A model generated the notes under the pieces. The model did no database searches. It had not been told where the DNA came from and saw only the letters and a program-made list of their open reading frames with translations. A stretch of DNA of 64,000 nt from an uncultured Ignavibacteria bacterium (GTDB taxonomy: Bacteria; Zixibacteria; MSB-5A5; DSPP01; RBG-1). Within the stretch, counting starts at the first letter, position 1, and each line of letters begins with the position of its first letter. A program made the translations under genes and the position numbers. The DNA lies in NCBI GenBank assembly GCA_964399055.1, contig CAYNPJ010000001.1, positions 1,255,347-1,319,346 on the forward strand. Reading direction: 5' to 3'. This document shows, piece by piece, positions 62,838 through 63,206 of the stretch.

Positions 62838-62866
62838 AAAAGCCCCGCCTAAAAAGCGGGACTTTT
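62838..62866 (-). terminator. Intrinsic terminator of the Cys-rich peptide gene
   Basis: Minus strand AAAAGTCCCGC-tttttag-GCGGGGCTTTT. Confidence 0.8.
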
Positions 62867-62901
62867 GACTCTTAGTCAGATGAAACTAATCCTACGACTG
62901 C

Positions 62902-63108
62902 TCATACGTCACAGCCAATCAGCGGGCAGACCACACAGCGACCTACCTGGCGGCATACGCCATCGCAACATTTAATCTTGGCGCAGGTGCAGTTCTCGCA
63001 GTAGGTGTAGCAGTTGCCTCCGGCTGAAGCCGGGCTGGTCAAGACCCCGACCACAAAGGAACTGGCCAAGGCCAGAATCAGAATACTGGCGACCAATGTC
63101 TTTTTCAT
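62902..63108 (-). CDS. Secreted cysteine-rich peptide (29-aa signal + 39-aa mature peptide with 10 Cys)
   Basis: RBS TAAGGAGGTGA; Sec signal ending ASA; mature GGNCYTYCENCTCAKIKCCDGVCRQVGRCVVCPLIGCDV. Confidence 0.85.
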   Translation of the reverse strand: MKKTLVASILILALASSFVVGVLTSPASAGGNCYTYCENCTCAKIKCCDGVCRQVGRCVVCPLIGCDV

Positions 63109-63178
63109 CTTCTCACCTCCTTATGATTTGATGGTTATATTTTTTATAACGTCACTCTGTTATTGTCAGACCCTCAAA

Positions 63179-63206
63179 ATTAAATGAGTCCGGCTCAGCG
63201 TGTCAA
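63179..63206 (-). promoter_or_regulatory. Sigma70 promoter of the Cys-rich peptide gene
   Basis: Minus strand TTGACA-16nt-TTTAAT. Confidence 0.6.

Follow-up and report, generated by a model that had tools for sequence, protein, structure and literature searches.

Towards one end of a 64,000-nucleotide stretch of DNA from an uncultured bacterium labelled Ignavibacteria (contig CAYNPJ010000001.1, positions 1,255,347 to 1,319,346; the whole stretch is referred to below as ‘the window’) lies a small gene for a secreted, cysteine-rich peptide. The gene occupies positions 62902..63108 on the minus strand, stop codon included, and encodes a 68-aa precursor. This consists of MKKTLVASILILALASSFVVGVLTSPASA followed by GGNCYTYCENCTCAKIKCCDGVCRQVGRCVVCPLIGCDV, the predicted cleavage point being the junction of the two. 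Residues 1–29 (63022..63108, minus strand) have the appearance, on inspection, of a signal peptide for the general secretory (Sec) pathway and signal peptidase I: an n-region (MKK), a 20-residue hydrophobic core, and a c-region (TSPASA) that contains an AxA motif, is followed by glycine at the putative cleavage site, and lacks a lipobox. The remaining 39 residues (62905..63021, minus strand) form the mature peptide. Ten of these, or 26%, are cysteines, and CxC, CC and CxxC motifs are all present. An earlier description of the window, made from its sequence alone (‘the original prediction’), had reported the 39-aa mature part, the 10 cysteines and the signal ending in ASA, all of which can be read directly. 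It had also placed five residues before the CC pair, and this was an error; the spacing is 3-2-1-4-0-3-5-2-4, that is, C-x3-C-x2-C-x-C-x4-CC-x3-C-x5-C-x2-C-x4-C.

The gene is equipped with its own signals for transcription and translation, all on the minus strand. A –35-like hexamer, TTGACA (63201..63206), is followed after 16 nt by a –10-like hexamer, TTTAAT (63179..63184). CTTGACA is conserved in the window and in two related loci, L001 and L010, both of which have TTTGAT at the same spacing, and so the element CTTGACA-16-TTTRAT is kept in three diverged loci whose surrounding intergenic DNA is poorly conserved. A consensus promoter scanner did not list the TTTAAT element because it lacks the canonical A at position 2. 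The Shine–Dalgarno sequence, TAAGGAGGTGA (63113..63123), ends 4 nt before the ATG, and GGAGGTGA is invariant in four of the four loci aligned. An intrinsic terminator (62832..62865) comprises a 12-bp hairpin (62865–62839) and a U-rich tail, UUUUCAUUUC; the 74-nt stretch that was folded has a minimum free energy of –24.7 kcal/mol (z = –3.9 relative to shuffled sequences). The promoter-like element, ‘perfect’ ribosome-binding site (RBS) and terminator of the original prediction are all present in the sequence, and it was right in its statement that no modifying enzyme or transporter gene adjoins the peptide gene. Searched with tblastn, the window contained neither a second copy of the peptide nor a redoxin, and an Rfam search of 62300–63600 returned only a sub-threshold match to the Trp-leader, which is terminator-like. 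The 5′ untranslated region also contains a perfect palindrome, GTTATAAAAAATATAAC (63130–63146, minus strand), that is not kept in L001, L010 or L017.

The gene is real and is under strong purifying selection. Compared with three orthologues, the mature region has a proportion of synonymous differences (pS) of 0.49–0.64, roughly 0.5–0.65, a proportion of non-synonymous differences (pN) of 0.03–0.07, and a ratio of non-synonymous to synonymous substitution (dN/dS) of 0.02–0.09. Four further orthologue pairs give mature values of 0.02–0.12. The signal-peptide region is less constrained than the mature part (0.08–0.19 for the three orthologues), and the gene as a whole falls between 0.05 and 0.13. 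Such low values in the mature region identify the minus-strand frame as the coding one and, together with the Sec-type signal, uphold the earlier claim that this is a genuine gene for what appears to be a secreted, cysteine-rich mini-protein. Residues other than cysteine are nearly invariant among orthologues, so that the whole mature surface, and not the cysteines alone, is constrained.

The family to which the peptide belongs is tiny: some 30 members were found among 1.8–5.8 billion proteins, and these are mostly from Zixibacteria. A search of 5.8 billion clusters gave 5 relatives, and then 16; 1.84 billion representatives, searched exhaustively with a HMMER profile, gave 20 matches, 17 of them true small peptides; and a last profile search added further, remote members. 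Three candidate relatives (P0017, P0022 and P0027) were discarded as translated tandem repeats, and locus L027 was dropped as a false positive. The sole source name for relatives is ‘hypothetical protein’, from the candidate division Zixibacteria metagenome-assembled genomes (MAGs) RBG_16_50_21 and RBG_16_48_11. A scan of GTDB species genomes produced two loci only, one in a Zixiibacteriota MAG and the other in a MAG labelled Ignavibacteria. The window DNA itself was found in hot-spring metagenomes, and hot springs and sediments are the source habitats of the family. No homologue was found among IMG/VR viral contigs or in 50,697 GenBank phage genomes, and full-text literature searches returned nothing on cysteine-rich peptides of Zixibacteria or on bacterial or phage knottin systems. 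All members share a signal peptide (MKK..L.LVLA.SFV.G..), with the AxA-type site and an S-F-x-x-G motif kept family-wide; the cores differ. Both this arrangement—paralogues with a common signal peptide and variable cores—and conservation of the cysteine framework among homologues had been foreseen in the original prediction.

In 28 of 29 members, the number of cysteines in the mature peptide is even (10, 8 or 6). The lone odd member, P0019, has seven; it is visibly degenerate, and occupies the middle of an array of five genes (L033). Six cysteines are invariant (C4, C8, C18, C19, C23 and C29 of the window peptide), in the 10-Cys members too. In the window peptide this core reads C4-x3-C8-x9-C18C19-x3-C23-x5-C29, with loops of 3/9/0/3/5; in remote members that have only six cysteines it reads C-x3-C-x8/9-CC-x4-15-C-x5-10-C, and across the family C-x3-C-x8/9-CC-x3-15-C-x5-10-C. 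As a sequence pattern, this matches the canonical C-C-CC-C-C framework of knottins (also known as inhibitor cystine knots, ICKs), and the loop lengths in the window peptide lie within ICK ranges. The remaining four cysteines are accessory: C11 and C13 lie in loop 2, and C32 and C37 in the tail. Since the remote members have the six-Cys core alone, the accessory cysteines would have to pair among themselves. How they do so is suggested by natural variants. Two complete 8-Cys genes (P0005 and P0010) are missing C11 and C37 together, which points to bridges C11–C37 and C13–C32 as the most likely pair; in a third variant, P0014, C11 is missing together with C32. We infer from these patterns that all ten cysteines are paired, as five disulfides.

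The predicted fold is consistent with this. When the mature peptide was modeled by AlphaFold2 with 18 homologues, all five models had predicted local distance difference test (pLDDT) scores of 80–83, the best reaching 82.7, for a prediction that rests on 18 sequences. The best model has three strands (residues 4–8, 14–19 and 22–28) and no helix; the CxxxC segment is modeled as a strand. A knottin-like interpretation would fit both the invariant core, C-C-CC-C-C, and the sheet of three strands in the model. Of the two kinds of mini-protein named in the original prediction, ‘defensin/knottin-like’, it is the second that the core and the model favor; the first would call for a helix, and none is predicted. 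Aromatic and aliphatic residues are conserved in the family, with one to four aromatics per member, and the net charge of the mature peptides ranges from 0 to +2.

Members of the family occur in three kinds of genetic context. The first, to which the window belongs, is a slot in a phage genome. From ~48.5 to 64 kb, the window, which comes from a Zixibacteria genome, is a prophage-like module of head and tail genes; among the products are a virion protein, a tail protein and the major head protein (phrog_3922, E = 1e-65). The upstream neighbor of the peptide gene encodes the C-terminal 152 aa of a phage large terminase (63540..64000, minus strand), in a frame that runs off the window. This fragment is 82% identical to the 444-aa protein of L001, which in turn matches the terminase large subunit family phrog_2 (E = 4e-29), and whose gene is preceded by a portal gene. 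The slot lies between the large terminase and the head genes. Peptides of the window type, which we call type 1, end in CPLIGCDV or CPLIGCDL, and are encoded directly after the large terminase in the window, L001, L010/18/19, L020, L021, L024 and L033. Indeed, a peptide gene or array right after the terminase is the one constant of this slot in at least seven related phage modules, type 1 being present in six. Usually, the arrangement is an array of two to five genes, normally type 1 plus a second type, type 2; L022 has four. L033 (1600–2989) has as many as five in tandem behind the large terminase, and the degenerate P0019 is among these. The other contents of the slot vary, and include a 467-aa secreted protein, a DUF6173 protein, a 328-aa dockerin-like protein and an FG-GAP protein. 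In the window, three genes of the opposite strand (60248–62000, plus strand) separate the peptide gene from the head genes; they encode a DUF3108-like protein, a 186-aa protein and a ~121-aa protein. Homologues of these three are found at other positions in L020, which indicates that the slot shuffles its cargo.

Against this background, two descriptions of the gene call for adjustment. The gene had been called ‘autonomous’, and in the window it is. In every related locus whose sequence extends past the gene, a paralogue follows 54–57 nt downstream, and there are one to four such paralogues; the window is the only locus that continues past the gene in which the copy is solo. The window terminator aligns to the RBS of the second paralogue of L001, L010 and L017, with an additional 12-nt insertion, and is followed by repeats that resemble miniature inverted-repeat transposable elements (MITEs). 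Since a paralogue follows at all other continuing loci, the solo, self-terminated condition is derived, and peculiar to the window. The gene had also been called a ‘moron’, and its promoter-like element, terminator, phage context and position in a variable cargo slot between terminase and head genes do agree with this; yet among related modules the gene is constant rather than variable or sporadic.

The MITE-like units bracket the window gene on both sides (62650–62790, 63228–63340 and 63460–63535). Their terminal inverted repeats are GTCATTGCGAG...CTCGCAATGAC and GTCATTCTGAG...CTCAGGATGAC. The source metagenome contains them in multiple copies (word depth 40–120, versus 17), and independent assemblies break at them. 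A second repeated element is the palindrome CTCCCCTTAAAGGAGAGGG, for which there are 11 matches with no more than three mismatches, versus 0.04 expected by chance. These lie at 48957–49005, 52723–52743, 58977–59022, 59314–59332, 62801–62819 and 63368–63386, all in intergenic gaps of the phage module; the first 48 kb are free of them. The palindrome may represent something peculiar to this module—a hairpin, a terminator or a repetitive extragenic palindromic (REP)-like element. Outside of the phage module, from 31 to 48 kb, the window contains ordinary host genes. Among these, just outside the module (37950–47864), genes for secreted hydrolases and surface proteins of the host are clustered: they encode an M14 carboxypeptidase, a protein with BNR repeats, one with a sorting domain for type IX secretion, and an S8 subtilase, with a MEDS/PAS histidine kinase alongside.

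The second context is chromosomal, and lay beyond the view of the original prediction, which was confined to a single stretch. In three assemblies, rpe is followed by two or three tandem peptide genes and then, on the same strand, by a gene for a Redoxin/AhpC-TSA protein of 185–187 aa with an N-terminal membrane anchor and a CHPC motif. A remote 6-Cys member from a high-GC organism has a redoxin gene 79 nt downstream, and this protein is 27% identical and has a CPPC motif. Among NCBIfam models, ResA and StoA, extracytoplasmic thiol-disulfide oxidoreductases, match these redoxins best, with scores below the cut-offs. This repeated proximity to redoxin genes links the peptides with thiol chemistry in the periplasm. 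The remote member lies between the ResA-like redoxin and a divergent extracytoplasmic function (ECF) sigma factor (L030, 306–1703), which hints at control by envelope stress. The third gene of the chromosomal arrays (L005, 10523–10723; L031, 1363–1572) encodes the same signal peptide and, to judge from its sequence, a second core type beneath it, ACPNSCATLRCPLNAVCQCDTQGNRTCCRCIRFVD, that is unrelated and has 8–10 cysteines. The third and final context comprises short contigs with neither a terminase nor a redoxin neighbor.

Taken together, these observations define a new and very small family of disulfide-rich mini-proteins, bacterial and prophage-borne, whose cores are knottin-like and whose link to a periplasmic oxidoreductase is conserved. 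On balance, we think it probable that the window peptide acts as an exported, disulfide-knotted binding or inhibitor module, with a knottin-like core of five disulfides, carried as cargo by a phage. The pre-peptide of 68 aa would be exported by the Sec pathway and cut after ASA (Ala29) by signal peptidase I, and the 39-aa peptide would be released into the periplasm of the diderm host. There, it would fold oxidatively, forming five disulfides and a knottin-type core upon a three-stranded antiparallel sheet. Folding, or proofreading, would probably be aided by a membrane-anchored, ResA/TlpA-like thiol-disulfide oxidoreductase of the host; this helper is proposed because such an enzyme is the immediate downstream neighbor of the chromosomal arrays, and the prophage copy would depend on the host’s version. 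The product would be a very stable extracytoplasmic module that might block or inhibit one particular, conserved protein of the envelope or outside the cell—for instance a hydrolase, a protease, a receptor or a channel. This is the least certain step. Purifying selection on all residues, near-neutral charge and the conserved pairing of type 1 with type 2 favor a specific protein target. The peptide would be produced from a promoter of its own, without dependence on the late genes of the phage, and might benefit the lysogen or the phage.

Several points weigh against this interpretation. A C-C-CC-C-C framework, as a pattern in sequence, is not by itself proof of a knot. Searches with the peptide of Pfam (E up to 10), NCBIfam and PHROGs gave no match apart from one, to AimP_fam, that is confined to the signal peptide; a profile search of PDB sequences gave only ferredoxins, at a non-significant E of 2.6; and Foldseek comparisons of the full-length and mature models with PDB and BFVD gave nothing below an E of 1, and no knottin. 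The best structural matches, both non-significant, were the Elf1 zinc ribbon in PDB (E = 3.6) and one in BFVD (E = 1.4). A peptide released into the periplasm of a diderm would have no evident route across the outer membrane. ResA/TlpA-type enzymes, moreover, are usually reductants, a role that would also fit peptides held reduced for metal binding. As for expression, the three small metatranscriptomes of the source study contain nothing from the peptide region. A sediment metatranscriptome, X13, includes a contig that is 85% identical over 62906–63083, in which the differences listed lie multiples of three bases apart, the pattern of change at third-codon positions. The capsid gene is present in X13 at similar depth, and carry-over of DNA is possible; more diverged genes would fall outside the match threshold used. 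The contig is a weak hint that the peptide gene is expressed.

Other interpretations deserve consideration. One is that the peptides are bacteriocin-like toxins, an arsenal of two to five paralogues released by phage lysis or in vesicles, for example, and directed at rival cells or grazers. Phage carriage and the tandem arrays of diversified paralogues under a shared signal peptide, up to five after the large terminase in L033, would suit such a role, and eukaryotic knottins and defensins are often toxins or antimicrobials. Defensins exist in bacteria, too (PMC11561630). We consider this unlikely, nevertheless: the peptides lack a cationic character, selection on each paralogue type is strongly purifying rather than diversifying, none of the contexts examined has an adjacent immunity, exporter or lysis gene, and the phage and viral collections searched contain no homologue. 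Of the four roles proposed in the original prediction (antimicrobial, protease inhibitor, metal chelator and signaling peptide), near-neutral charge and strong purifying selection argue against the first, as a membrane-active antimicrobial, and against the last, as a diversifying signal. That the peptide might be a communication signal of the phage, similar to arbitrium or to another quorum signal, we regard as very improbable. It is phage-encoded, seemingly secreted, and has its own promoter, and there is a weak match to the NCBIfam model AimP_fam (E = 0.0066). This match scores 16.6 bits against a cut-off of 35, and spans only residues 1–24, the signal peptide. No AimR-like receptor was found adjacent, and membership in the arbitrium AimP family was rejected. 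The mature peptide is 39 aa long and disulfide-rich, pherotype-like diversification is absent among the phage variants, and paralogues on host chromosomes are linked to a redoxin. Slightly less probable still is that the peptide is the precursor of a ribosomally synthesized and post-translationally modified peptide (RiPP), with its N-terminal region serving as the leader for modifying enzymes encoded elsewhere. Small size, abundant cysteines and a conserved N-terminal region would suit such a precursor, but the N-terminus is built like a Sec signal, with n-, h- and c-regions and an AxA site, and no radical S-adenosylmethionine enzyme, lanthipeptide synthetase, YcaO protein, C39 peptidase or ATP-binding cassette (ABC) exporter is encoded in any of the three kinds of context.

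A further alternative is that the cysteines are thiolates. The peptide would then be a periplasmic metal binder—metallothionein-like, or a chaperone or buffer for copper or zinc—kept reduced by its ResA/TlpA-like neighbor. This would account for the high proportion of cysteine, for the CxC, CC and CxxC motifs, and for a conserved neighbor whose family mostly reduces extracytoplasmic cysteines; hot-spring and sediment sources, the zinc ribbon that heads the non-significant structural matches, and a weakly ferredoxin-like stretch (C..GxC..CP) point the same way. We rate it a little below the toxin and likewise improbable, in view of the even parity of the cysteines and their loss in pairs, the confidently predicted β-sheet, the conserved aromatic and aliphatic residues, and a constraint on other residues that is as strong as that on the cysteines. 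Parity (28 of 29 members), paired losses, one to four aromatics and a predicted sheet also separate the peptides from metallothioneins as these are defined. The 4Fe-4S ferredoxins were rejected as well: these require CxxCxxCxxxCP, of which only C-x5-C-x2-CP is present, and the match to them (E = 2.6) is the one mentioned above. The signal, furthermore, is of the Sec type and not the twin-arginine (Tat) type, which rules out export with a pre-loaded cofactor. Three other candidates were set aside: a leader of the double-glycine kind, given its hydrophobic character and the lack of GG conservation; a lipoprotein, given the absence of a lipobox; and a spanin, holin or signal-arrest-release (SAR)-domain protein, a role that neither the location nor the architecture fits.

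Returning to the disulfide-knotted module, we conclude that the interpretation in the original prediction, taken as a whole, is partly supported. A more ambitious version can be put forward, which for now we find doubtful: that the family constitutes a two-part, prokaryotic cystine-knot system, and would be the first of its kind. In one part, a diversifying family of Sec-exported, knottin-like peptides would co-evolve with a dedicated, ResA-like folding catalyst. In the other, a subset would have been captured by a lineage of temperate phages, which keeps the type 1–type 2 pair beside the terminase as a lysogenic-conversion factor (which might, for example, block a receptor, inhibit an enzyme or, released upon lysis, act as a toxin). 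Disulfide-knotted mini-proteins are prized as hyper-stable scaffolds and as toxins and, to our knowledge, are known almost only from eukaryotes. If confirmed, the present family would reveal a prokaryotic route to knottin-type scaffolds, furnish a model for the periplasmic folding of five-disulfide peptides, and show that phages in an uncultured phylum carry a new class of cargo. Its assets are a six-Cys core that does not change; naturally occurring forms with 6, 8 and 10 cysteines, from which the bridge pattern is predicted; a candidate dedicated folding enzyme; and a conserved place in phage genomes.

How do these peptides compare with systems already known? They most resemble the knottins (e.g. 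the omega-conotoxins, potato carboxypeptidase inhibitor, and the conotoxin-like peptides of baculoviruses). Both would be secreted by way of signal peptides and have mature forms of 30–50 aa; both have the six-Cys C-C-CC-C-C framework, and a three-stranded antiparallel sheet is predicted here; and in both, paralogues combine conserved signal peptides with diverging cores. The window peptide differs in having four extra cysteines and five predicted disulfides, and its family in being bacterial, prophage-borne, periplasm-bound and linked to a ResA-like redoxin. It has no sequence or Foldseek similarity to any knottin family, and the likeness is one of framework. For this reason—a shared framework and no family match—we do not file the peptide as a proven knottin. 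The KNOTTIN database includes predicted bacterial and viral knottins, none of which had an experimental structure as of 2017 (PMC5753296).

The bacterial cis-defensins (e.g. xanthusin-1, AdDLP and the actifensins; five classes in all) are likewise Sec-secreted, disulfide-stabilized mini-proteins that were discovered by genome mining (PMC11561630). Their defining CS-alpha-beta fold is an α-helix carrying CxxxC that is stapled to a CxC β-strand, and the 74 bacterial defensins reported come from Proteobacteria, Acidobacteria and Actinobacteria, not Zixibacteria (PMC11561630). Whereas theirs is a cysteine-stabilized helix with three or four disulfides, the window peptide has ten cysteines, and since no such helix is predicted in it, it would appear not to be a member.

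Other likenesses are more distant. The STa enterotoxin of Escherichia coli is made as a 72-aa pre-pro-peptide with a Sec signal, acquires three disulfides in the periplasm, and is encoded by mobile DNA flanked by repeats; a Sec-signal precursor, a small cysteine-rich product and a mobile gene are common to both. STa differs in its pro-region, its shorter mature peptide (18–19 aa, with 6 cysteines in another framework) and its exit through TolC, and no homology between the two was detected. OmcA of chlamydiae, an exported, disulfide cross-linked protein of the envelope, is also small and very rich in cysteine, but it is a lipoprotein, whereas the window peptide lacks a lipobox. Metallothioneins share the CxC, CC and CxxC motifs, but reside in the cytosol, are without regular secondary structure, and show no constraint on cysteine parity. 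Finally, in the manner of phage morons and lysogenic-conversion genes, the window gene lies within a cluster of late structural genes, with a promoter-like element and a terminator of its own, among neighboring cargo that varies. It departs from them in that the peptide genes are a conserved element of the slot in all of the seven or more modules, and in that they have paralogues on bacterial chromosomes.

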